From assembly GCA_014161675.1 (NCBI GenBank), contig GCA_014161675.1_4760.2: DNA of 53,227 bases; one strand, 5' to 3'. The DNA is from a phage. The stretch's first letter is position 1; each line of letters begins with the position of its first letter. The notes below the pieces were generated by a model, which saw nothing but the letters and a program-made list of their open reading frames with translations, was not told the origin of the DNA and did no database searches. The position numbers were made by a program, and so were the translations under genes. Positions 3,266-31,911 of the stretch are shown here, piece by piece.

Positions 3266-4213
3266 TTAGAACTCACCAATTTTCTGCAACATTTTAACTA
3301 ACGCATTTGTTACAAAATAGTTATAAATTTTACCGCGTGGTGCTGGTTTAGATTTCTCCCATGCTAACAAAATTTCATATTCGATGTTATCAGGAATAAA
3401 TTCAAAATCAATAAGTTCGCGGTTTTCGTCAAAGCGTCGTGCTTCTTCCTCTGTCATCAAATACTTTGGATCTTCGGCATCGAAAATTTGCTCTAACCAT
3501 TTGGTTGCAATTGGTTTAGCTCGTTCTCCTTCCAGTCGTGAGATAATGAAATCACTACGGCACTTGATCGAAGCTACACCGTCTTTTGCGTCACCCTTAA
3601 CACATTTTACCATAAGGTCTTTGTAAGGGCTACCATATTTGCATTTCTTCCATGCTTTCTGTACTGGTGCCCACTGTTTCACATTTTTGTATTTGTGCAA
3701 CTGTGTGTAGTCACCATCGCCGGAGTTGATTAGCACCTGGCGACCTTCTACAGAAAACTTTTTAGTTAATACAGCGATTATATCATCCGCTTCAACTTTG
3801 TCAACCTTAATAACGTGATAAGGCATGTTCTCTTTAAACTCTTCGGTGATCTTATTGATCGCAGCAAAGATCATCTCCCAATCACGCGGATCTGCGTCTC
3901 GTTTTTCCTTACGGTTGCGTTTATAGTAAGGTGCGATATCACGTCGCCAGTAACCTTTGCTTGAATCAAAGGCAAGTACCGTAATTGGGTATTGCTCTTT
4001 GAATTTTGTCATATTATAACGCATGGTGTCAAGAATAAGATGACGGATCATGCCTTCACTAATAGGATCTTCCGGTTTAAAGGTATGCGAGATAGTAGCA
4101 ATCATAAGCTGCGACATATCAATCAAATGCACACCTTCCGGTAGTTTATCTTCTGGATCATCGAAGAAATCATTAAGTGTAGCGGTAGTTTTTGTAAACG
4201 GGTTATACGTCAT
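3266..4213 (-). CDS. rnh: RNase H (5'-3' exonuclease / flap endonuclease)
   Basis: 315 aa; recalled T4 RNase H similarity (GYWRRD, YYKRNR, MPYHVIKVDKVEADDIIAVL, SGDGDYTQLHKYKNVKQW, PPRGKIYNYF). Confidence 0.9.
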   Translation of the reverse strand: MTYNPFTKTTATLNDFFDDPEDKLPEGVHLIDMSQLMIATISHTFKPEDPISEGMIRHLILDTMRYNMTKFKEQYPITVLAFDSSKGYWRRDIAPYYKRNRKEKRDADPRDWEMIFAAINKITEEFKENMPYHVIKVDKVEADDIIAVLTKKFSVEGRQVLINSGDGDYTQLHKYKNVKQWAPVQKAWKKCKYGSPYKDLMVKCVKGDAKDGVASIKCRSDFIISRLEGERAKPIATKWLEQIFDAEDPKYLMTEEEARRFDENRELIDFEFIPDNIEYEILLAWEKSKPAPRGKIYNYFVTNALVKMLQKIGEF

Positions 4214-4215
4214 AA

Positions 4216-4401
4216 TTAAGTTCTCTCCACTCTCACAACAACATATTCGCCAAACGAGTTAGATACTTCACGATCATACCCGTATTTCTCCATAACTCGC
4301 AGAATTGCATTGTTTAATTCGGCACGGAAATAATTGTAATCCTTATCAGGGATTCTGTCAACTATCCATTTTGCACCTTCTGACAAATCAACTTTAACCA
4401 T
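4216..4401 (-). CDS. Hypothetical protein (61 aa)
   Basis: ORF preceded by AAAGAGGA; lies in the divergent region between rnh and gene 34. Confidence 0.45.
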   Translation of the reverse strand: MVKVDLSEGAKWIVDRIPDKDYNYFRAELNNAILRVMEKYGYDREVSNSFGEYVVVRVERT

Positions 4402-4439
4402 AATTTATCATCCTCTTTTGTTTCTATCAAGCCTCATTT

Positions 4440-4447
4440 TATAAATA
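4440..4447 (+). promoter_or_regulatory. T4-type late promoter (TATAAATA) for gene 34
   Basis: Exact TATAAATA about 28 bp upstream of the gene 34 ATG at 4476, followed by AAGGAG. Confidence 0.6.
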
Positions 4448-4475
4448 TGAACATACTATAAAAGGAGACCCAATA

Positions 4476-7400
4476 ATGGCAGATTTTTCTCAACATTTCA
4501 AGGCCACATTTGGCTTTGACGCTGGTAATGAAAAGGTCGTCAATGTAGCATTGGCTGATAAGAATGTCAACACCGATGCGGTCAACGTTGAATTTTTCAA
4601 TTACCATAATGGTATTACTCAGTATGACACAACTCGCGGTTATGATCAATACGGAACTACAATCTATCAAAACCGTCCGTATTATGCAAAAGAAGATATC
4701 ACAAAGCCAGCAGGAGATTTTGACCCGACTAAATGGCAAGCACTGCGCACGGACCCACGTTGGGATTATATTGCAGCAACTTCCGGTGATACTCCTTTAC
4801 AGTCTGGCGATTATATCGCAGCAGATGGTCAATTTGCAAACTTGACTTTCTCTATGCCAACTAAACCAGCAGAGGGAGACACTATAACAGTAAAAGATAT
4901 CGGTGGCAAGTGTGGTGTTAACGAATTATCGTTCTTGAGTACAGGACATGAGTTTTACCATAATGGTAATGTGTATAACAGAAAATGGTATTGCACTACC
5001 CCGTATGCAATGAACTATTTCATCTTTGTTCGGAATCGTTGGCATGTTTATCAGACAGGAACAGAGCCACGCGGTGTGTACGCACAGCCAGCGATTGATG
5101 CTATTCAAATGCAGAATGGTGATCAGGTATTTCGTCGTAGTTCGTTGGGTAATATTACCTTAGTGCTTCCTAAGTTTGCCAACAATGGCGACATGATCCA
5201 GACTACAGACCTTGACGGATTAACCGCAACCAACCACGTTACGGTTAAAGTTCATGAGCACGCAGAAGAACAATCAATTGGCACGTCCGGTCTAAAAGAG
5301 ATTATCGGTAAGCGTAGCGGTCATGGTGTATTCATCTTTGACAAGACGGAAAACTTATGGCGTTTGTGGGATGGTGATCAGTCTGTTCGTCTTAAACCGA
5401 TCATCAATGACACTCGCTTGCAACCTAATAGCTATGTTGCTGTATTTGGTGGTCGTGATGTTACTCTGACGCTGCCGACCAATGTCGAGCCGGGTGATCG
5501 TATTCAAGTTTCTATGCAGTATATGCACGGAAACCAGAATTGCCGTATTATCACCGCCACAGAGGATACAAAAATCCTTATGTCGAAAAACATGGTTCAG
5601 TTTCCGAAGCGTAGCGAGTACCCATTCAACGGGACCGACACATGGAAGGAAGTGTCTGAATTGTCGTTCAATGCGGCTAGTGATTATGTACCTTATCTGG
5701 AGTTCTCTTATTCAGAAGGTGATGATGGTAAGAAACATTGGCTGGTAGCACACGCTCATCCGATCGTAGAACGAGTAGATCCGACTCGTAAAGCGCGTGT
5801 CGGTGTAATTGCACTGGCTACCCAGACTGAAACGAATAAAAACCATGAAGAGAATCCTAGCGACGAAGTTGCAGTAACACCAAAAATGCTGGCTAATAAA
5901 ACCGCCAACGAAACTCGACGCGGTATTGCTCGCATTGCGACTCAGGCGGAAACGCATCAAGATACTGGTTCCATCTTCCTGGATGATGTTATCGTTACGC
6001 CTAAAAAGTTAAATGACTGTGTTGCTACCGAAGCCCGTCGTGGTGTGATGGAAATTGCAACCCAGCACGAAACCAATGAAGGTTTAGATGATACCCGCGC
6101 TATTACTCCTAAGAAATTAGAAGAACGTCGCGCTTCCGAAGATCTCGCTGGTATTGCTGAAATTGTTCAGGCTGGCGGTAGTGCTGCCGCTCGACGTGGC
6201 GAAGCTGGTACAGGGATCTATAACATCAACGACCATGTTAAAATTGTTACGCCACAAAACATCAACGAAGTCAAGGCGACCGAAACTTCCCGTGGTGTTG
6301 GCTATCTGGCAACTGACGCGGAAGTGCAAGGGGCTACAGAATCAACCCCGCAAGATGCTTTACTAATCACGACTCGCACGCTAACGAAACGTACTGCTAC
6401 AGAATCGCGTACTGGTATCGCTGAAATTGCAACTCAGGAAGAAACAAACTTAGGTCAAAGTGATAACCATATCATCACGCCTAAAAAGCTGCATACTCGC
6501 CGCGCAACGGAAACTTTACATGGTTTAGCAGAAATTGCAACTCAGACGGAATTTGACGCAGGTCTTGACGATTCTCGCATTTCTACCCCATTGAAGATTA
6601 AAACCTTCTTTGAGAATGCACAGCGTTTGAAAGTAGATCCGACTCAGGGGCTTAACCTTACTGGTGATTTGTGGCAAGGTATCATGATCAGCGGTCTGGA
6701 TGCAACCGAAGACACAAAAGGTGTCGCTAAAGTTGCTACTACTCAGCTTACGGATGCTGGTCAAGATGATACTACAATCATCACGCCTAAAAAGCTGCAA
6801 GGCAAAAAAGCCACCGAAGGTAAAGAAGGCATTATCCGAGTTGGTACTCAAGCCGAAACCGTGGCTGGTATTATGGACAATGTAGCAATTTCTCCGAAGA
6901 ACTTCAAATATGTTGTTCAGACAGAGGATACATGGAAAGCAACCGAAGCGCGTCGTGGCTTCTTGAAAGTTGCTACTCAGGAAAACTGTTTTGTTGGTGA
7001 TAATCTGCAAGGTTCTACTCAAGAACTAGGAAACTACCAGCATGACGGAATTGCTGTTACTCCGAAAGGATTAAACTACGCACTTGCTAATTTCTTACCT
7101 AAGATGGCAACCGCTCAGAATAGTTTGAAATTGGGTAACGTAGAGGCCGCTAAATGGGCGCGTAGAGACATTGACCAGACCATAGAGAGCAATTATACGT
7201 TTAATAAAAACGTTAACGTGAAGGGCGATTTAGAGTGCTTAAAATCTGGTTCCTTTGAAACTCTGTCTGTGACTAAGAACTCGACCGATGTTCCGAGTAA
7301 TGGTCATCTGGTATTGGGTGAGCGTGGAGTTGACGGTCACACCGGAATTACTCTGCATGGCACAACCGCATCGGAAGGCATGAAAAACTCTTGGTCTATT

Positions 7401-23566: not shown

Positions 23567-25675
23567 TTAAAATTTAACATTCTTAACCAGTTTCATAAAG
23601 TCTTGTGCGCGTTTGTCATTATGCAGAATACGATACCAGTTATCTACAATATCATACAGTAACGGGCTATTCTCTTTAAACTTCGCACAAACTGCTTTAA
23701 TTCGTTCGTTTGCTACCGTGAATTTTTCATCACAAATCTTTTTAGTTTCTTCGTCCATAATCCAACGAGTACGAAGGAGTAACTTGGAAACCTCTTTATT
23801 ATAATGACGACCGTACAGTCTGTCAATAAATTCTGGAACACAGCGTTCTAGTTCATCGTCATGAAACAACATAGTGATCACACCCAGATATTCGCCATAC
23901 CCCAGATGATTGGTCTTAACCTTCTTAGCCAGACCAGCCAGCTTACCGCGAACAAATTCTAGCGCACATTCCAATTGTTCGTCAACGAGATATTTTTGTG
24001 TCTCGTTTCGAGTAATAATATACTTTGTTACCCCGAAGTAGTCAAGCGCCGTGTGTAATGTATTTTCACTATGGATCGATTTACGACTACGGCTTTCGAA
24101 TGCATCACCTACGCGGAACATGTGCAAGCCTGATAACTCGCGAATCTCTGCCGCTTTCATGTGATGGCTGGTTTTATGCCAACTGTCACCAATCTTTTCC
24201 ATGATATACACGTTAGGCAGCTTAGGAGTCGCTTCACGTTGTGTACGCTCGGTCTTCTCCGGTTTAACTGCTTTAGCACGCAGATCATCGGCCTCAGAAA
24301 CTTTAATCACGGTCATTTCAGAATCATCATAATACTGTTTGATGTACTCGAAAGTTTCCATATGTTTTTCGTTGCGCTGACGGAACACCAGTACCTTTTT
24401 ATTGATGCCGTATTCCTGGACCATACCGTTAAGAGTCAGTGCGCGTAGTTTCGGTTTATCGGTATCATCAATAAGACACATAATATCTTCTTTATGCATC
24501 CATACAAAATGCGTAATGTTGTATTGACTGCTAACGAAAGCAGGGCGCAATTTACTGATTGTGTGACGAGTACGATACAGAGTATACACCTGACCTTCTA
24601 CGTCATTAGGCGAATCTTTACCCGCATTCACAAACTTATTATAGATTGCTACCGGATCGTCCCATTGTCCGATCTTACCCATCTTGCTAATAATATTGCG
24701 TTGAGTCGATGAATACTCGCTCATAAATTGCGCAAGTTTACGCTCTGTTTTAATGTTGGCGATCTTCTCTTTAACCTTTTCCAACATCATTTCATTGATT
24801 TCTGCAATACGTTTTTCGATGTTCGCTTTAGTCTCAATTGACAAGTGAACTTCTTCACGCGATGGCATCAGGTCCAGATCACCCAACTCAAAATTAATGT
24901 AAATGGTCTGGTGCTGGCGGTTTACAGCTTCTAACCATGTTCCGCGAACATATTCATACGGGATCGGATACTGGATCTTACCCATGATTGCATATACTAC
25001 ATAGGAATCGTTATCACGCCCATTACAAACATAATAATTATCAAAGCTAGGGAAATAATTAATTTCGATTGCATTGATATTAGGTTTGTGTTCCCCAAAA
25101 TGACGCAGTACAAATTGCGCTTCTCGATGCCATGTCTGAATGTCTTTTTCTTTCACTGGAATAGTGATTTTCAGACCATTGTCTTCATAGGTCGGTTCGT
25201 CGAAAATCTGCACCATTTTCGGCATAGAGTTTTGCACAAATGCCGTAAAGCCATAAGCGCGACCATTGTAATAGTTTACGATTGTAAAGGTGTCAGTGTA
25301 GCTATAAGCAGATTTCGCACCTAAACCAAAAGACCCGATATAGTCATTAGTCTGGTCTTTTGTTGATTCAAAGTAAACCGTAAACAGTTGTTCTAATTCT
25401 TTCTTAGACGGAATACCAGTACCATAATCACGCACAGAGAAATACGGTTCGATTGCAGTCGGTAAATGAATGTCAAACGGACGATCTAAGGTTCCGGCTT
25501 CTTTGTGAGTGTCGGTAGCATTGCACGAATACTCACGGACGCAAGCACGCTCACAATATTGATAAGTGTTCTTAGAAAGCACCATAAAAGCCTTGCTACT
25601 TGCTTTCAGTGAAAAATCAACCGCACCGCTCAAGTCACTGCCAAATACTTCTTCATTATCAATATGCATTTTCAT
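23567..25675 (-). CDS. rIIA: rIIA protein (GHKL-type ATPase domain)
   Basis: 702 aa; GHKL-type motifs (VRDYGTGIP, GSFGLGAKSAY); size and position next to rIIB match T4 rIIA. Confidence 0.85.
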   Translation of the reverse strand: MKMHIDNEEVFGSDLSGAVDFSLKASSKAFMVLSKNTYQYCERACVREYSCNATDTHKEAGTLDRPFDIHLPTAIEPYFSVRDYGTGIPSKKELEQLFTVYFESTKDQTNDYIGSFGLGAKSAYSYTDTFTIVNYYNGRAYGFTAFVQNSMPKMVQIFDEPTYEDNGLKITIPVKEKDIQTWHREAQFVLRHFGEHKPNINAIEINYFPSFDNYYVCNGRDNDSYVVYAIMGKIQYPIPYEYVRGTWLEAVNRQHQTIYINFELGDLDLMPSREEVHLSIETKANIEKRIAEINEMMLEKVKEKIANIKTERKLAQFMSEYSSTQRNIISKMGKIGQWDDPVAIYNKFVNAGKDSPNDVEGQVYTLYRTRHTISKLRPAFVSSQYNITHFVWMHKEDIMCLIDDTDKPKLRALTLNGMVQEYGINKKVLVFRQRNEKHMETFEYIKQYYDDSEMTVIKVSEADDLRAKAVKPEKTERTQREATPKLPNVYIMEKIGDSWHKTSHHMKAAEIRELSGLHMFRVGDAFESRSRKSIHSENTLHTALDYFGVTKYIITRNETQKYLVDEQLECALEFVRGKLAGLAKKVKTNHLGYGEYLGVITMLFHDDELERCVPEFIDRLYGRHYNKEVSKLLLRTRWIMDEETKKICDEKFTVANERIKAVCAKFKENSPLLYDIVDNWYRILHNDKRAQDFMKLVKNVKF

Positions 25676-25689
25676 AATATAATCCTCAC

Positions 25690-25947
25690 TTAATTAAAAT
25701 CTTCTTTGTCCATCTCTGCGTAGATTACATCCCACGCCCATAAATCAATAAACGCATTATATGTCACGGTGCAATCGTTGTCAATCACTTCTTTCGCATA
25801 TTTCTTGATGTTTTCGTAGGAAACTTGCGGGTCAATTTTGTGTTTACGAAGGTGCGCATATTCATATCTCAGACATTTCATAAACAGGTCCATCGATTTC
25901 TTTTCTCGATGACACTTGGCGATCATAAAATCAAAACTTCGACTCAT
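25690..25947 (-). CDS. Hypothetical protein (85 aa)
   Basis: ORF downstream of rIIA. Confidence 0.45.
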   Translation of the reverse strand: MSRSFDFMIAKCHREKKSMDLFMKCLRYEYAHLRKHKIDPQVSYENIKKYAKEVIDNDCTVTYNAFIDLWAWDVIYAEMDKEDFN

Positions 25948-25958
25948 TTTTCTACTCC

Positions 25959-26153
25959 TTATACATTTTCAATTACCCATTGCAGATGGGCTTCTGCGTC
26001 AACCAGTTCAGCGCGGCTTTTCTCTAAGCACTTGCTGTATTCTTTACGTTCCCACTCGGCAATTTCGTTTTTCAGGACTTCTTCATAGTAAGCAATTACG
26101 CCTTTCAGGTCTGAAACTTTACGGCTTGCCAATTCGATGTAATGGTTACGCAT
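25959..26153 (-). CDS. Hypothetical protein (64 aa)
   Basis: ORF, probable coiled coil. Confidence 0.4.
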   Translation of the reverse strand: MRNHYIELASRKVSDLKGVIAYYEEVLKNEIAEWERKEYSKCLEKSRAELVDAEAHLQWVIENV

Positions 26154-26349
26154 TTTGATTCTCCTTTGTTACTAGATAACGAATTTGGTCTTGCATTGCG
26201 ATCAGTTCCCAGCGTGCTACTTTCATCATGGAAACTGACTCTTTGAACATAATATTAGCTTTTTCCTTCTCCCCTGTCAAGTAGATTTCTGCAATTTTTT
26301 CACAAAATTTTTGAGTTTCTTCATTCTTAAACGGTTTCATATAAGTCAA
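26146..26349 (-). CDS. Hypothetical protein (67 aa)
   Basis: ORF with its own promoter. Confidence 0.45.
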   Translation of the reverse strand: MTYMKPFKNEETQKFCEKIAEIYLTGEKEKANIMFKESVSMMKVARWELIAMQDQIRYLVTKENQNA

Positions 26350-26370
26350 CCTTTTGTTTTCGATGGGGAC

Positions 26371-26399
26371 ATTATGATATATCCCCGATCCAGTGTCAA
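26371..26399 (-). promoter_or_regulatory. Sigma70-type early promoter
   Basis: Minus strand TTGACA (26394-26399), 17-bp spacer, CATAAT (26371-26376). Confidence 0.55.
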
Positions 26400-26406
26400 C
26401 AGATTT

Positions 26407-26706
26407 TTAATCTTTTTTCAATGCATCCATTACTCGCTCTGCGATCAGTTCTCGTAAGCACTGATAACCATGATATTTGATGGCAATGTCACGCAGATCA
26501 TTAACCAGTTCCCGTACTTCATGGTCTTTCAGATCGTCTCTGTATTTCGATTTAACCGTGTCTTTAGGTGGATTGCGGATAACCTGAAAACCTTGTTCTG
26601 CAATCACTGCGGCTTCTCGCTGGCGTTCATGCTGTACTGTATTTTTGATCAGGTCTACTTCCATGAACTTTGTCATACTCATCATCATGTTATTCTTTTT
26701 GCTCAT
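26407..26706 (-). CDS. Hypothetical protein (99 aa)
   Basis: ORF with its own promoter. Confidence 0.45.
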   Translation of the reverse strand: MSKKNNMMMSMTKFMEVDLIKNTVQHERQREAAVIAEQGFQVIRNPPKDTVKSKYRDDLKDHEVRELVNDLRDIAIKYHGYQCLRELIAERVMDALKKD

Positions 26707-26740
26707 TATTCAATCCTCATAAAAGAAAAGGGAGACTCCC

Positions 26741-26768
26741 ATTATAGAGAATCTCCCTTGTATGTCAA
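26741..26768 (-). promoter_or_regulatory. Sigma70-type early promoter
   Basis: Minus strand TTGACA (26763-26768), 16-bp spacer, TATAAT (26741-26746), flanked by the GGGAGA/TCTCCC inverted repeat. The -35 overlaps the stop of the HNH gene. Confidence 0.6.
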
Positions 26769-27328
26769 CTAAAATTTAAAGATGCAAACTCCCCGTGATG
26801 AATTTTTGCATATTCATCATATGCTCTAGCGGCTTCCTCCTGAGTAGCAAACGATCCTATGTATTTTCTGTATCCGTTTATCCTTATTTGTGCTTGCCAC
26901 GGTCTTTTGCTAGATCCTTTGCGATGAGTAACACCATTATATATGCTCGTGCACCCGTCCATTTTCTTTTTATTGTACATGTTTTGTTGTTGTGTTGCCT
27001 CCCGTAAATTTGGTGGATTGTTGTTTTCTGGATTCCCGTCTATGTGGTCTATTACCTTAACCTGTGTTCCATATTCAAGAAACCAGACAATTCTATGTAC
27101 AAGATATGTAGATGTTCTCTTTTTAACCTTATTGTAAACATCTATTGCCAAATGACCGTAATTTAACTTTTTTGTTTTTACTTTATCACCGACTCGGTAG
27201 AAATATCCCTCTGGTAGACCATTAAAAGACGGACTATTTGTTTTGTGATATAGAACACCTTCCGTGTGTTCAAATCTGCGTTTTAATTCCTCTTGAATTT
27301 CAGTATTCCAAAATTTCGCACTTTTCAT
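26765..27328 (-). CDS. HNH homing-type endonuclease with C-terminal AP2 DNA-binding domain
   Basis: 187 aa; HNH motif region HRIVWFLEYG...VIDHIDGNPENNNPPNLREAT, then an AP2-like segment YNGVTHRKGSSKRPWQAQIRINGYRKYIGSFATQEEAARAYDEYA. Stop/start are adjacent to gene 39. Confidence 0.85.
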   Translation of the reverse strand: MKSAKFWNTEIQEELKRRFEHTEGVLYHKTNSPSFNGLPEGYFYRVGDKVKTKKLNYGHLAIDVYNKVKKRTSTYLVHRIVWFLEYGTQVKVIDHIDGNPENNNPPNLREATQQQNMYNKKKMDGCTSIYNGVTHRKGSSKRPWQAQIRINGYRKYIGSFATQEEAARAYDEYAKIHHGEFASLNFS

Positions 27329-27329
27329 A

Positions 27330-29153
27330 TTATGACGCCATCCATGCCTTCCTCATGTCTGAATCTTCGCTATAGAGCAAATCGAATAGCTCTTTATAGT
27401 TTTCCGGTAACGTGATGATTTCCATTACAGGATCGTTGATCACGCGATGATAATCTGATTCTGTAAGAGATGCTAACCCTTTGATATATCGAATGCTATA
27501 ACCTTTGATATTATCTCGGTCGTTCTCGAAATCTTCTAGGTCATAATACCATCGAACATCATCACCTTTCTTTGGTTCCGCAATGATAATAGGTGTTTTG
27601 ATAAACCGGATTCGTCCATCTTCGAACAATTCAGGCCAACGTGCAAAGAAAGAGATCAGACTAGGTTTAATAGACCCGATCCCGTCAGTATCAGCGTCTG
27701 TCATAATCGCAATATTTTTGTATTGCATAACTTCCAATGCATCAACACCAAATTGCAAACCAGTGATCGCCATGATGTTAAAAATTTCGGCGTTCTTAAC
27801 GATCTTTGCCTCCGGTTGTTCCCACGTTGTAAGAGTTTTGCCTCGCAACGGGAAACCTCCATGTAAATCTGGATCACGTACAGAGACCAGATAGTTGATC
27901 GCGGAATCACCTTCCGTCAAAAACAGGGTAGTTTCTGCGTCAGTTCCAATAAGGTTAGCTTTAACGTGTTTTGCTACCTTAGCCCGTTTCGCTGCTTTGG
28001 CTGCCTTAGTCGCTGCCGCTTTATCTGCTGCCTCTTTGCGTGCCAGGACTACAGCAATAATAGGCATGATAATGTTTTCTTTCTTCGCAATGACTTTAGC
28101 CAGCTTTTTAAAATCAAGATCAATATGACGCTTGATATCACCAGTTGGATTAGTCAATCGTTCTTTTGTCTGTGAATCAAAACGAAGGTTAGGCAATTCA
28201 CGAACAATAAGAATACAGGTCAATCCAGACTTAACCGCAGCTTTAGTAACATCAACCTTATGTTCTTTCTTGATTCGTTTTACAATCTCTTCACAAAGAT
28301 CATCTGTCACGTAGTCTACGTGTGTTCCCCCGTTTTTGGTAAACAGACCATTAGCAAAGGATACTGATTTAAAACCTTCTCCCTCGACCGCAGGAACTAG
28401 GGCAAGTGAAAAGTTTTTATCTTCAATGACAAACGGATCATCATTGTATAGTTTAGCATAATCCTTGAACTTACTAACAATACGTTTACCATTAAACTTA
28501 AACGTGATCTTAGGAAAGATTACGCTCAATGATTGCAGACGATCATGAACAATATCTAAAACAGAGTTGTCCATCATATAACCTTCGAAGTGGTCGAAGT
28601 CTGGACAAAATGTAACCTTCGTTCCCTTCAATTTTGATGGTTTTGATGACCATGTGATATTTTCAGCCCCGTTTGTGCATTGAACGGTCATTTCTGTTTC
28701 ACCGTCACAGGTCACACCAGTAAACCAATCGCTAAAGAAATTTGACAACGACGACCCCACACCGTTCATCCCTTGCGTTAATCGATTGGTATCATCAAAG
28801 TTAGACCCTGCTTTTGTTCGTGTCCATGCGGCTACAGGTTGCGGAATCTGCGTACCCTCTGGGGTAGTAACCATATGTTGAGGAATACCGCGACCATTGT
28901 CTGTTACCGTAACAATATTGTTTTGGATATCGACGCTAATCACATTGGCAAATTCAAAGTTAGTGCGGATCGCCTCGTCTACAGAGTTGTCGATGATCTC
29001 ATCAATGATTTTAACCAGTCCAGGAACATATGAAATTTTTGTCCACTTACCGAACAGGAAACGTTGATGTTCTTCGTAAGTTGTTGACCCTATATACATT
29101 CCTGCACGCTTAAGGACATGTTCACGATCAGATAAAATGCGAAACTCACTCAT
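27330..29153 (-). CDS. 39: DNA topoisomerase II large subunit (unsplit gp39 + gp60 equivalent)
   Basis: 607 aa; GyrB-like ATPase motifs (IIDNSVDEA, VTDNGRGIP, GVGSSLSNFFS) continuing into the gp60-equivalent C-terminal region with no interruption. Confidence 0.92.
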   Translation of the reverse strand: MSEFRILSDREHVLKRAGMYIGSTTYEEHQRFLFGKWTKISYVPGLVKIIDEIIDNSVDEAIRTNFEFANVISVDIQNNIVTVTDNGRGIPQHMVTTPEGTQIPQPVAAWTRTKAGSNFDDTNRLTQGMNGVGSSLSNFFSDWFTGVTCDGETEMTVQCTNGAENITWSSKPSKLKGTKVTFCPDFDHFEGYMMDNSVLDIVHDRLQSLSVIFPKITFKFNGKRIVSKFKDYAKLYNDDPFVIEDKNFSLALVPAVEGEGFKSVSFANGLFTKNGGTHVDYVTDDLCEEIVKRIKKEHKVDVTKAAVKSGLTCILIVRELPNLRFDSQTKERLTNPTGDIKRHIDLDFKKLAKVIAKKENIIMPIIAVVLARKEAADKAAATKAAKAAKRAKVAKHVKANLIGTDAETTLFLTEGDSAINYLVSVRDPDLHGGFPLRGKTLTTWEQPEAKIVKNAEIFNIMAITGLQFGVDALEVMQYKNIAIMTDADTDGIGSIKPSLISFFARWPELFEDGRIRFIKTPIIIAEPKKGDDVRWYYDLEDFENDRDNIKGYSIRYIKGLASLTESDYHRVINDPVMEIITLPENYKELFDLLYSEDSDMRKAWMAS

Positions 29154-29256
29154 TATTAAACCTCTTCATAACATAACCATAACTTACTGCAACCGCCACA
29201 AAGACGGCTGCAACAATCATATTAAAAATTGAGTGATTGTCAAGTATATGACTCAT
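29146..29256 (-). CDS. Candidate 36-aa hydrophobic micro-ORF
   Basis: ATG overlaps the FmdB-like stop (ATGA); hydrophobic core MIVAAVFVAVAVSYGYV; its stop overlaps the gene 39 start. Speculative; competes with the promoter call at the same place. Confidence 0.25.
   Translation of the reverse strand: MSHILDNHSIFNMIVAAVFVAVAVSYGYVMKRFNNE
29216..29243 (-). promoter_or_regulatory. Candidate sigma70-type promoter upstream of gene 39
   Basis: Minus strand TTGACA (29238-29243), 16-bp spacer, TATGAT (29216-29221); AAGAGG lies 9 nt upstream of the gene 39 ATG. Confidence 0.4.
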
Positions 29257-29426
29257 GACACGCGCACATTTTTATCATAGTACCCGCCATTAATCCCGCG
29301 CGGGGCAGTCAATCCCTGTTTGCATTCTTTACCACATTCAGGGCATTCTGCCTTTTCCCGCTCGGAAATTTTGCGGATTTTCTGAAATTGACCGTGTTCT
29401 TCACAAGAATAATCGTATAATGGCAT
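29253..29426 (-). CDS. FmdB-family zinc-ribbon protein
   Basis: Start placed at the internal Met (MPLYDYSCEEHGQF...CPECG...), the canonical FmdB-type start with CxxH and CxxC pairs. The track's N-terminal extension overlaps dexA. Confidence 0.55.
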   Translation of the reverse strand: MPLYDYSCEEHGQFQKIRKISEREKAECPECGKECKQGLTAPRGINGGYYDKNVRVS

Positions 29427-29427
29427 A

Positions 29428-30096
29428 TTATCCCCTTTGTTTCTTAACTGAATTTGGATCTGGATTTTCTGGTAGGTCTTCCAGACCCATAGCATAACGT
29501 TGTGCATAGATTAGCATAAGAATATCGCGAGCGCAATCATGAATTGCATCATGTGCGATAAAACCATCTAGCGTACCCATTGGTAACGGACACTCACACA
29601 TCCCGCGATGCATCAATGTACGCTCAATGGCGGTGCGAACATCTCGGATGTTCCAGAATCGCACAGGTTCAAGATTGAACGTCTCTCGTGTATTGTGTGC
29701 ACGGCGGATCATATCAACTAGTAACGGAATATCAAACGCATTACCGCGTGACCACATTACGGATTTAACCGGATCTACTCCTACGGCTTCACAGAATGCG
29801 TTAAAACGCGCTAAACCTTCTTTAGTTGATACTTCCGTACCATTTGTGATTAATTGCTTTCTCATGCCTTCTGAGGCGGTATTCTTCCACCATTCAACTA
29901 CACCATGATCAAACACCCTTACACCTTTCTGGGAAGGAATATCAAATTTTACCAGAAAGGAATTGTCAACCAGTTCTTTAAATGTAGGTGGGTTGTGCGG
30001 ATCTTCTTTAAATCCGATTGCCGCCATATTGATCACCGCCCCATCAGGCGGATAACCTAAACTTTCAAAGTCAATCATTAAATCCACTGGAAGCAT
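29428..30096 (-). CDS. dexA: Exonuclease A (DexA)
   Basis: Recalled T4 DexA similarity (IDFESLG, KFDIPSQKG, EWWKN, FDIPLLVDMIR, FNLEPVRFWNIRD, CPLPMGTLDGFIAHDAIHDCARDILM, RYAMGLED). Start set at the Met of MLPVDLMIDFE. Confidence 0.85.
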   Translation of the reverse strand: MLPVDLMIDFESLGYPPDGAVINMAAIGFKEDPHNPPTFKELVDNSFLVKFDIPSQKGVRVFDHGVVEWWKNTASEGMRKQLITNGTEVSTKEGLARFNAFCEAVGVDPVKSVMWSRGNAFDIPLLVDMIRRAHNTRETFNLEPVRFWNIRDVRTAIERTLMHRGMCECPLPMGTLDGFIAHDAIHDCARDILMLIYAQRYAMGLEDLPENPDPNSVKKQRG

Positions 30097-30341: not shown

Positions 30342-30509
30342 TCAAAACCCTCGCTTAGTGAAATGCTCGATCATTTTATTGATACATGCAGCTTCACTAT
30401 CGCCGGACACGTTCCAGCCGTATAGACCCCATCTAAAGCACATGGTAACAGTTCCATTGTGACGGCTTACCGTCACATCATTAAATTCTGGGATACTTCG
30501 CATAATCAT
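30342..30509 (-). CDS. Candidate 55-aa micro-ORF
   Basis: AGGAAATT upstream; MIMRSIPEFNDVTVSRHNGTVTMCFRWGLYGWNVSGDSEAACINKMIEHFTKRGF. Below the track cutoff. Confidence 0.3.
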   Translation of the reverse strand: MIMRSIPEFNDVTVSRHNGTVTMCFRWGLYGWNVSGDSEAACINKMIEHFTKRGF

Positions 30510-30519
30510 AATAATTTCC

Positions 30520-31911
30520 TCAAATATAGTCTACTCGATACCGCGCACGGGTAACACCCACATATAATAACTGCATTGCCAGTTCAAAGTCAACATTGTC
30601 TGTACACATGCAAGGAGTATACAGGAACACGCGGTCTACGCTGATCCCTTGTGACTTATGAATGGTGCAAGCTGGTAATGCTTTTACATTCAAGAACATA
30701 CGCTTCATCGTCCAGAAGGAATCCCAATCTGGTTTAAATTTTGGATTCTCTTTCTTCATTTCGCGATATTGTCCGGCGACCGTATTCAGATAGATAGAGA
30801 AAATGTTCTTCTGACGTTGTTCTGTCAGAATGTTGATTTCTACTAAATCTGGTTTATCTGTAGTGATTCCGACTGCATCTAAACCGACTTTCTGATTTAG
30901 GATTTCTTTGTCTTCGTCATCATCGACGCTTTCCACTTTCAGAGTATATCCTAAAACTGGTTGCGGATCTACCCCCGTGCAACGTAATGTAAATTCACGC
31001 GGGATGACCTCTTTAACTCGGATCATCTCACCATTGTTAAAAATAACATTGGGAATCTTCTTCCCGCGTTCATCTCGCAGATATTCGATCAATGGTTCCT
31101 GAGTAACCAGAATTTCATCTACAATCACTGGTTCATCGGTGTTATAAACGCGCTTACGCACAATTTCATTGAGTTTTTCGACGCTCTTGTTAGTGTAGGC
31201 CAGAATACGGTTTTCTAGAAGGTCTTCCGGCGTTTTAACGGTTTCGAAATAATGCTTCATAAACTCCGGCAGAGTTGAGCTATGGAATACACCCTCGTTA
31301 CCGCACTGCTTTTCGAATACCCATTTACCATTACGGACAGCGGTCGCCACATCAATGATCGGTGCATTAGATCGTTTAATTTCTGTGAGTTCTACATTCT
31401 GGAATCTTTCATCGGTGAAGAAAGGAGAGATCGACGTTGCACCGCTCGGATCAACTGGTCGTAACTGGTGCGGATCGCCCACGGCAATAATAACAATTCG
31501 ACCGTTGATACTCTTCATGAGAATATCAAATAGTTTCTTATCGACCATACTCGCTTCATCAACAATGATGATCTGAACATCATCTAGCTTAGGAGTATCT
31601 TTTTGCTCAAATACTTGAGTATCTTCATAGTTGGTCGGGTTTAGTCGCAGTAGTGCATGTAAAGTAAATGCTTGACGACCTACCGCTTTACTCAAAACTT
31701 TTTTAGCCTGGTGGGTAGGCGTTGCCAAAACCACACCAGTTACACCACGGCGGACCATTTCCTGAACAATGAATTTCATCATTGCGGTTTTACCAGTACC
31801 CGCCGCACCACGGACAGTTGTATGCTTCTTTTGTTCAATGCGTTTCATTAGAACATCAAAAGCATGTTTTTGCCCGTCTGTTAACATATCGAAAGTTAAT
31901 ACTCTGCTCAT
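30520..31911 (-). CDS. dda: Dda DNA helicase (SF1B)
   Basis: 463 aa; recalled T4 Dda similarity (LTDGQKHAFD, GAAGTGKT, ATPTHQAKKVLSK, VDEASM, EIKRSNAPIIDVATAVRNGKW, LPACTIHKSQG, LLYVGVTR). Confidence 0.92.
   Translation of the reverse strand: MSRVLTFDMLTDGQKHAFDVLMKRIEQKKHTTVRGAAGTGKTAMMKFIVQEMVRRGVTGVVLATPTHQAKKVLSKAVGRQAFTLHALLRLNPTNYEDTQVFEQKDTPKLDDVQIIIVDEASMVDKKLFDILMKSINGRIVIIAVGDPHQLRPVDPSGATSISPFFTDERFQNVELTEIKRSNAPIIDVATAVRNGKWVFEKQCGNEGVFHSSTLPEFMKHYFETVKTPEDLLENRILAYTNKSVEKLNEIVRKRVYNTDEPVIVDEILVTQEPLIEYLRDERGKKIPNVIFNNGEMIRVKEVIPREFTLRCTGVDPQPVLGYTLKVESVDDDEDKEILNQKVGLDAVGITTDKPDLVEINILTEQRQKNIFSIYLNTVAGQYREMKKENPKFKPDWDSFWTMKRMFLNVKALPACTIHKSQGISVDRVFLYTPCMCTDNVDFELAMQLLYVGVTRARYRVDYI

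Follow-up and report, generated by a model that had tools for sequence, protein, structure and literature searches.

What does a small endonuclease gene do between topoisomerase gene 39 and the next early promoter of an RB49-like phage, and does it move between phage genomes? The question is raised by a DNA stretch of 53,227 nucleotides (nt) (contig GCA_014161675.1_4760.2, referred to below as the window), whose source is a T4-type coliphage of the RB49-like genus Krischvirus. Around the endonuclease locus, 3.7 kb matched 59 phage records at 90-99.7% identity, the closest match being phage kvi (99.0%). An initial annotation, made from the window sequence, had described the gene as a free-standing homing endonuclease, composed of an HNH catalytic core and an AP2 DNA-binding domain. 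Comparison of the locus among relatives points in the same direction: with fairly high confidence, this is a free-standing HNH-AP2 homing endonuclease gene, carried by a minority of phages, present as near-identical copies in diverse flanks, with intact reading frames and with relatives inserted elsewhere.

Nine of the 59 Krischvirus records, corresponding to eight phages (W115, FL15, G37-3, G5211, pEJ01, kvi, JSE, and LF73P4), carry the gene, and the site is always the one between gene 39 and the next promoter. The remaining 50 records, including those of RB49, Phi1, and GEC-3S, precisely lack it, and their alignments all break at the same point. The initial annotation had named presence at this site in all relatives as an argument against mobility; the gene is, on the contrary, missing from most of them. 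The empty site, TAA-CAC-TTGACA, is identical in the non-carriers inspected (11/11) and holds no remnant of an endonuclease gene. These are otherwise very similar phages, the cassette being present in a minority of genomes that share 96-99% identity. No decayed or truncated copy of the endonuclease was found, and all copies are intact; in the nine carrier records, the reading frame is open and the catalytic residues are preserved. As IMG/VR gave only two Krischvirus loci, the comparison was based on GenBank phage records and public assemblies. An identical protein is listed in 35 blocks of the public assemblies, and the same context is seen in all of the contigs read (24/24). Outside the Krischvirus cluster, the best match in a collection of 5.8 billion proteins is 51% identical. 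The orthologs in W115, G5211, and FL15 are named ‘HNH endonuclease’ or ‘homing endonuclease’ in GenBank.

The unit that distinguishes carriers from non-carriers is a cassette of 588 nt, which replaces 30 nt of the endonuclease-less allele. The net gain is 558 nt, visible as a 558-nt gap in all non-carriers. On the coding strand, non-carriers read ...TGG ATG CAA TCA TAA CAC TTGACA..., and carriers read ...TGG ATG GCG TCA TAA T ATG...(HNH)...AGT TGA CA.... In every copy of the cassette, the final seven sense codons of gene 39 are recoded, with substitutions at 11 of their 21 nt, against a background divergence of about 2%. In FL38, the closest non-carrier, this tail is CGC CGC AAA ATT TGG ATG CAA (R R K I W M Q); in carriers, it is ATG AGG AAG GCA TGG ATG GCG (M R K A W M A). 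When the nine carriers are aligned with 10 non-carriers, positions without a shared allele are found only at 27327-27356, and none beyond. Phage JEP8 lies outside this alignment; it is a non-carrier sharing four of the 11 changes, so those four are not fixed once it is counted. A 38-nt patch is identical in all carriers (38/38), and matches at 23-25 of 38 positions in non-carriers. The recoding alters wobble positions, an arginine codon family (CGC to AGG), and non-conserved residues, and it keeps the R-K-x-W-M motif (R-K-x-W-M-x-S in its longer form), which is conserved across T4-like topoisomerases. The recoded tail may, thus, be an element-borne, cleavage-resistant copy of the endonuclease target, gene 39 being the presumed target gene.

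The history of the cassette differs from that of the DNA around it. Among the nine carriers, the HNH gene is 99.1-100% identical, compared with 95.3-98.7% for the next 234 nt of gene 39, and nucleotide diversity among carriers, at 0.019-0.022 in the flanks, drops to 0.004 within the HNH gene and to 0 within the patch. In a set of 12 carrier loci (the window and 11 loci from public assemblies, including the already counted GenBank phages FL15 and pEJ01), the 564-nt HNH gene shows 0-2 mismatches and the patch is invariant, while the flanks, 372 nt on the gene 39 side and 300 nt downstream, comprise 10 haplotypes each. FL38, PTE-Eco09, and ECD7 are identical to the window over the adjacent gene 39 segment (234/234) and lack the cassette. 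Similarly, the two main flank haplotypes at 27400-27510 are each found with and without the cassette, and a flanking single-nucleotide polymorphism (SNP) at 27369, only 13 nt from the patch, is unlinked to carriage. Carriers and non-carriers share all flanking SNP alleles, no carriage-associated SNP being found past 27356. Because the copies are near-identical, the flanks are diverse, and non-carriers share these flanks, the comparison indicates that the cassette has a far more recent common ancestor than the surrounding DNA, and that it resides in many backgrounds.

The proposed domain architecture is confirmed by profile matches, sequence matches to Protein Data Bank (PDB) entries, and a structure model. 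The HNH_3 profile (PF13392) matches residues 75-118 with an E-value of 6e-14 and 51.8 bits, above its cut-off of 24.8 bits, and the protein matches PHROG 99 (phrog_99, ‘HNH endonuclease’) with an E-value of 5e-49. Using phmmer against PDB sequences, the best match for residues 42-122 is I-HmuI from phage SPO1 (1u3e, E-value 4e-5), with D94, H95, N107, and N116 of the window protein aligned to D74, H75, N87, and N96 of I-HmuI. The roles known in I-HmuI are those of a general-base histidine preceded by an aspartate, a structural asparagine, and a metal-binding asparagine. In an alignment of 35 homologs, D94, H95, N103, N107, R109, and N119 are invariant, and N116 is the majority-consensus residue, not an invariant one. 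The AlphaFold model built from this alignment has a mean predicted local distance difference test (pLDDT) value of 93.6 and a predicted template modelling (pTM) score of 0.84. Its HNH region displays the beta-beta-alpha-metal fold, and the top Foldseek match in the PDB is also I-HmuI (1u3e, E-value 3.8e-4, 105 columns, root-mean-square deviation (rmsd) 3.6 Å).

The AP2 profile (PF00847) matches residues 130-175 with an E-value of 1.4e-5 and 25.7 bits, which fails the Pfam gathering score of 33.3 bits. Nevertheless, the best phmmer matches of residues 127-186 among PDB sequences are plant AP2/ERF proteins (WRI1, 9e-6; ERF096, 3e-5; ERF1, 3e-4). In addition, about 61 C-terminal residues of the model superpose on 7et5, 7et4, and 1gcc with an rmsd of 1.2-1.6 Å over 60-62 columns (34-41% identity for these three, 34-43% among the AP2 domains matched, Foldseek probability 1.0), and form a three-stranded sheet on a helix, as in solved AP2 domains. 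On the strength of these sequence matches and of the model, the HNH-AP2 architecture is considered real, despite the sub-threshold Pfam score.

The nearest homologs (46-51% identical) belong to other T4-like phages, each at a different site beside conserved genes, mostly involved in DNA replication. These sites are between rpbA and gene 45, next to gp2, upstream of dsbA, near nrdD, and after primase (an assignment judged by eye from the translation, as no profile match was obtained). One Klebsiella phage carries seven members of the family, and no paralog of the endonuclease was found in the 53-kb window. This pattern is the one expected of site-specific selfish nucleases diversifying by target change.

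Taken as a homing element, the cassette would spread in the following way. It has no promoter of its own, and fits precisely between gene 39 and the early promoter that follows. The endonuclease gene would share the transcript of gene 39, and its translation, at a low level, would proceed through termination-reinitiation at the TAA-T-ATG stop-start junction. During a mixed infection, the enzyme would nick or cut the endonuclease-less allele in or beside the 3′ end of gene 39; by analogy with I-HmuI, a single-strand nick is predicted as the initiating lesion. Recombinational repair off the carrier genome would then copy the cassette into the cut genome, while the 11 tail substitutions would shield the carrier genome from its own enzyme.

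Several points weigh against this interpretation. The position of the target is deduced from the recoded patch only, and free-standing endonucleases can cut hundreds of base pairs from their own gene. No SNP-marked co-conversion tract is visible beside the cassette in natural isolates. Hypervariability of the target region among non-carriers, as a trace of an arms race, is not claimed: nucleotide diversity there is modestly raised, at 0.06, against 0.02-0.026, but the five segregating sites in the 38 nt equal the maximum of other 38-nt segments. The analogy with T4 MobA, discussed below, is functional and not based on sequence, and a full-text literature search found no mapped cleavage site for any phage HNH-AP2 enzyme. 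The main residual uncertainty is that endonuclease-stimulated transfer and general recombination are inseparable by sequence. A single insertion, with ordinary homologous recombination then acting on the flanking DNA, could give the same pattern.

This last point is what an explanation by passive carriage builds on, in which a single foreign entry into the Krischvirus pool was followed by spread through T4-like general recombination. The nuclease would then be inactive on phage DNA or serve another purpose (competing with co-infecting phages, or degrading host DNA), and the recoded tail would be a leftover of the donor gene 39 at the original crossover. The G+C content of the endonuclease gene, which is lower than that of its flanks (36% vs. 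41%), suggests a foreign origin, and no flanking SNP moves with the cassette, even at a distance of 13 nt from the patch. Such an origin of the tail is, however, difficult to reconcile with the donor search: among 13 gene 39 loci from other T4-like genera, no tail matches at more than 18 of 30 nt, which is no better than RB49, and exact-pattern scans of IMG/VR and of the JGI metagenomes did not find the patch. Divergence stops abruptly after 21 nt with the conserved residues kept, which looks like selection at the nucleotide level. As every copy also retains its catalytic residues and its open reading frame (ORF), and as family relatives behave as site-specific insertions at other loci, passive carriage is regarded as unlikely.

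The gene might also be an ancestral Krischvirus gene, deleted in most lineages and not currently mobile. Homing endonuclease genes are known to cycle through gain, decay, and loss, and most genomes are without the gene. Yet the copies are about five-fold less diverse than their flanks, which indicates a recent, and not an old, common ancestor, and the tail alleles of non-carriers are more diverse than those of carriers. Loss would also have to account for the clean TAA-CAC-TTGACA site in each non-carrier inspected, for a single break point in 50/50 non-carriers, and for the lack of decayed or truncated copies, so that this scenario is very improbable. It is no more credible that the protein is primarily a DNA-binding regulator, with an AP2 domain acting on the adjacent early promoter and terminator and a vestigial HNH domain; the chance of this is considered minimal. 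AP2 domains are those of transcription factors in plants, and the gene abuts both elements, but these are identical in the 50 records without the gene, which implies that no dedicated regulator is needed. Moreover, the HNH domain retains a conserved catalytic D-H-N-N set, and the gene is dispensable in most relatives. Homing remains the preferred explanation for the cassette.

Some further observations concern the surroundings of the recoded tail. In JEP8, the tail is intermediate, GAT CGC AGA AAA GCG TGG ATG CAA (JEP8 locus 1497-1530; window 27333-27366), sharing with the carrier allele the AG- arginine codon and the GC- alanine codon, in a phage devoid of the HNH gene. No other of the 50 non-carrier records has such an allele; JEP8 also has an EndoVII-type gene. 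This tail may represent a target that resists cleavage, the product of a partial conversion, or a relic. At 27345-27359 of the window, the carrier sequence ATG AGG AAG GCA replaces a GC-rich run of the non-carriers, which reads GAC CGC CGC in FL38, GAC CGC CGA in ECD7, and CAG CGC in RB49. A preference of AP2 domains for GC-rich sites has been reported (Magnani 2004, cited in PMC10448857). The run may mark the binding site of the AP2 domain, and it has no exact match to the plant GCC box. Just past the recoded patch, inside gene 39, an imperfect inverted repeat, CTATAGAGC...GCTCTTTATAG, is found at 27370-27399. It lies within a block of about 50 nt that is almost invariant in all relatives, and which may be simply conserved coding sequence, or a homology arm for repair.

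The coordinates of the features are collected in the table below.

Features of the endonuclease locus, with positions in the window, and locus coordinates of the closest relatives of the endonuclease
Feature	Position	Strand	Basis
Whole mobile cassette, 588 nt	26769..27356	minus	Junction alignments
Endonuclease gene (187 aa + TGA stop)	26765..27328	minus	ORF list
HNH_3 (His-Me finger) catalytic core, aa 75-118	26975..27106	minus	Pfam, phmmer, Foldseek
C-terminal AP2 DNA-binding domain, aa 127-186	26771..26950	minus	Pfam below cut-off, phmmer, Foldseek
Recoded gene 39 tail, 11 substitutions in 21 nt	27336..27356	minus	Alignment of 9 carriers and 10 non-carriers
Stop-start junction TAA-T-ATG, gene 39/endonuclease	27326..27332	minus	Sequence
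Gene 39, DNA topoisomerase II large subunit, 607 aa, unsplit	27330..29153	minus	ORF, Pfam, T4 alignment
Sigma-70 early-type promoter TTGACA-16-TATAAT, 12/12 consensus	26741..26768	minus	Pattern match
Terminator-like hairpin, 13-bp stem and T-rich run	26718..26759	minus	RNA fold, -28 kcal/mol, z -2.84
Promoter-like site TTGACA-16-TATGAT upstream of gene 39, 11/12 match	29216..29243	minus	
Five closest relatives, coordinates in their own loci	L034 4001-4558; L037 1045-1593; L041 323-895; L042 522-1097; L043 859-1422		

The gene order requires one correction. The endonuclease gene had been placed directly upstream of gene 39, but as both genes are on the minus strand, it is directly downstream (3′), and lies to the left of gene 39 only in plus-strand coordinates. 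The junction reads TCA-TAA-T-ATG-AAA (27335..27323, minus strand). On its other side, the endonuclease gene is followed by small early genes on the same strand, leading to rIIA (23567..25675). Plus-strand ORFs over the endonuclease gene (for example, 26795..27007 and 26943..27137) were dismissed as antisense by-products of the minus-strand ORF.

As had also been proposed, the stop codon of the endonuclease gene overlaps the -35 element of the early promoter, its TGA (26767..26765) falling within the TTGACA hexamer (26768..26763) of a promoter that fully matches the consensus. The terminator-like hairpin covers the -10 hexamer (TATAAT) of the same promoter, and would end the transcript of gene 39 and the endonuclease gene. 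With this layout, transcripts coming from upstream would meet the terminator, and promoter-initiated transcripts would hold only the 3′ half of the stem. Promoter and terminator are unchanged in relatives without the endonuclease, so that the superimposed layout is kept in carriers and non-carriers; in HNH-less phages, the promoter directly follows the gene 39 stop. The promoter is independently annotated in the HNH-less GEC-3S, and the terminator in G5211 and GEC-3S.

Transcription of the endonuclease gene probably starts from the promoter-like site that precedes gene 39. A dedicated late promoter was ruled out, as the T4-type late promoter TATAAATA does not occur in 26600-29400. There is no good Shine-Dalgarno sequence at the endonuclease start. 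An RNA structure masking this start, as in some T4 endonuclease genes, was also discarded, since 27280-27420 folds no better than shuffled sequence (z 0.57), and no known RNA family of Rfam matches in 25600-29600. Because the promoter and terminator are resident, no late promoter and no structure at the start were found, and a promoter-like site precedes gene 39, we infer that the endonuclease gene, with no promoter of its own, is a passenger on the early transcript of gene 39, and that its translation is coupled to that of gene 39, through termination-reinitiation at the stop-start junction and at a low level. A promoter-less, translationally coupled arrangement has been reviewed for several free-standing endonuclease genes of T4 (PMC2988022).

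Gene 39 itself is continuous, as initially described, and shows no gene-60-type split. A single ORF contains the domains HATPase_c, DNA_gyraseB, Toprim, and TOPRIM_C, and both T4 proteins align with it: residues 4-475 of T4 gp39 correspond to residues 2-474, and residues 31-159 of T4 gp60 to residues 476-606. On these alignments, the gene is the equivalent of a gp39+gp60 fusion; the record of phage Phi1 labels its counterpart ‘60+39’.

The idea that this neighbourhood is a hotspot of endonuclease-driven gene conversion holds in part. In its favour, 13 relatives carry a second, unrelated gene of the EndoVII type beside the 5′ end of gene 39. The parallel drawn with T4 is only functional: MobA is unrelated in sequence, and its site is about 400 nt away. 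In G5211, the EndoVII-type gene is a 242-residue ORF with a C-terminal Endonuclease_7 domain (PF02945, E-value 5.6e-16), located immediately upstream of gene 39 (G5211 locus 3860-4588). The copies in the 13 Krischvirus records are 97-99.6% identical, and relatives with 40-45% identity occupy the equivalent genome position in VR7, VR26, and RZ. The window does not carry this gene, the equivalent empty site being at about 29154-29252. Furthermore, the 5′ third of gene 39 (window 28400-29153) is common to G5211 and G37-3, and differs by 20-30% from that of every other relative. This tract resembles the product of a long gene conversion by a foreign donor, although G37-3 is without the EndoVII-type gene despite sharing it.

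Other polymorphisms are found in the vicinity. At 26165-26351, about 163 nt are absent in JSE and FL15, which removes a 67-residue ORF (26146..26349; PHROG 5072, function unknown) and constitutes another presence/absence polymorphism among the small early genes. At about 30353-30800, in a region of small ORFs between dexA and a dda-like helicase gene, a replacement polymorphism is seen, some relatives having about 178 nt extra at about 30353 and about 178 nt missing at about 30623.

When all of these elements are combined, a more detailed picture can be drawn, which is tentative and somewhat less likely to hold in full than to fail. The element would be a seamless 588-nt cassette with built-in immunity codons and a stop borrowed from the -35 hexamer. 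Its AP2 domain would read the GC-rich run of non-carriers, GAC-CGC-CGC (FL38-type) or CAG-CGC (RB49-type), recoded to ATG-AGG-AAG in carriers; gene 39 would be bracketed by two competing homing elements, this one and the EndoVII-type gene, and the JEP8 allele would be a naturally resistant target free of the endonuclease. If true, the HNH-AP2 class, the proposed ancestor of plant AP2/ERF factors, would thereby gain its first defined pair of target and immunity sequences.

Phages commonly carry HNH-AP2 endonucleases, from which plant AP2/ERF proteins are considered to have obtained their DNA-binding domain. In the searchable literature, no HNH-AP2 endonuclease with a mapped target site or a demonstrated homing event was found, and the locus described here offers a clean natural experimental system for this class. 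Near-isogenic carriers and non-carriers occur naturally, for example kvi and kaaroe, both isolated on MG1655 from Danish wastewater, or FL15 and FL38, which share Danish pig feces as their source. They are complemented by a sharply bounded 21-nt candidate target/immunity sequence, and by the natural intermediate allele of JEP8. The five closest relatives listed in the table constitute a possible set for studying target switching by HNH-AP2 enzymes. The topoisomerase large-subunit gene is repeatedly invaded by unrelated endonucleases, namely MobA in T4-type phages, and the HNH-AP2 and EndoVII-type enzymes in RB49-type phages. For annotation purposes, the gene is to be regarded as an ordinary accessory selfish gene, not as a core function.

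Among the closest known systems, T4 MobA targets the same essential topoisomerase large-subunit gene, is likewise promoter-less, and overlaps or abuts the upstream ORF. The resemblance does not extend to descent, as homology was rejected (BLASTP E-value of 22, in a comparison that used only the annotated 48-residue T4 fragment, NC_000866) and the insertion sites differ. MobA has a classic ‘HH...N...N’ HNH motif and no AP2 domain, and belongs to a nuclease lineage different from that of the window protein. Its element inserts within the gene, at residues 466-473, and splits 39/60, whereas the cassette described here follows the stop codon and leaves gene 39 whole; the MobA insertion point corresponds to about residue 475 of gene 39, near position 27728, some 400 nt from the HNH-AP2 site. 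The MobA element also comprises a 50-nt translational bypass cassette, while gene 39 of the window has neither a coding gap nor a bypass element. The MobA element carries HomR, a diverged replacement of the target with 67-81% identity (Manning and Atkins, bioRxiv 2022.08.31.505936). HomR presumably prevents self-cleavage, and the 21-nt recoded tail would have the same apparent role, without any split or bypass.

T4 SegF, SegG, and MobE illustrate the mechanism proposed here, in which a free-standing gene lies beside a conserved one and the endonuclease-less allele is cleaved and repaired by recombination, leading to marker exclusion. They follow the same logic of a promoter-less cassette, with translational coupling and preserved downstream promoters (PMC2988022). 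SegF and SegG are GIY-YIG enzymes and MobE is of another HNH lineage; their activity and co-conversion tracts have been shown experimentally, whereas the activity of the window protein is predicted. I-HmuI, from Bacillus phage SPO1, is the best match in both structure and sequence (1u3e, residues 42-122), with the catalytic set conserved, but it is intron-encoded, unlike the free-standing gene of the window. I-HmuI ends in a helix-turn-helix domain, and the AP2 domain holds that position in the window protein.

The HNH-AP2 class, reportedly defined by Magnani et al. in 2004, provides the closest relationship. Phage members such as RB49ORF040c, those of RB43/RB16, the ‘HNN-AP2’ genes of Xanthomonas phages Xp10, OP1, and Xop411, and IPA-HNH of ICP1 have the same N-terminal I-HmuI-type HNH (HNN) domain and C-terminal AP2 domain, and are likewise free-standing, intergenic, and sporadic. 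RB49ORF040c is listed as AP2-HNH by Nolan et al. (2006, PMC1524935), and Petrov et al. (2010, Table 5, PMC2993671) count one HNH-AP2 gene in RB49 and two in JSE. Of the two in JSE, the additional one very probably corresponds to EpJSE_00005, which is orthologous to the window endonuclease. The site, polymorphism, and recoded tail of the Krischvirus copy were not found described in the searchable literature. Compared with other members, the window copy is at most 51% identical, and it stands out by its defined site 3′ of gene 39 and by its linked recoded patch. By its sequence, the endonuclease is a well-delimited further example of the already recognised class of free-standing HNH-AP2 homing endonucleases.

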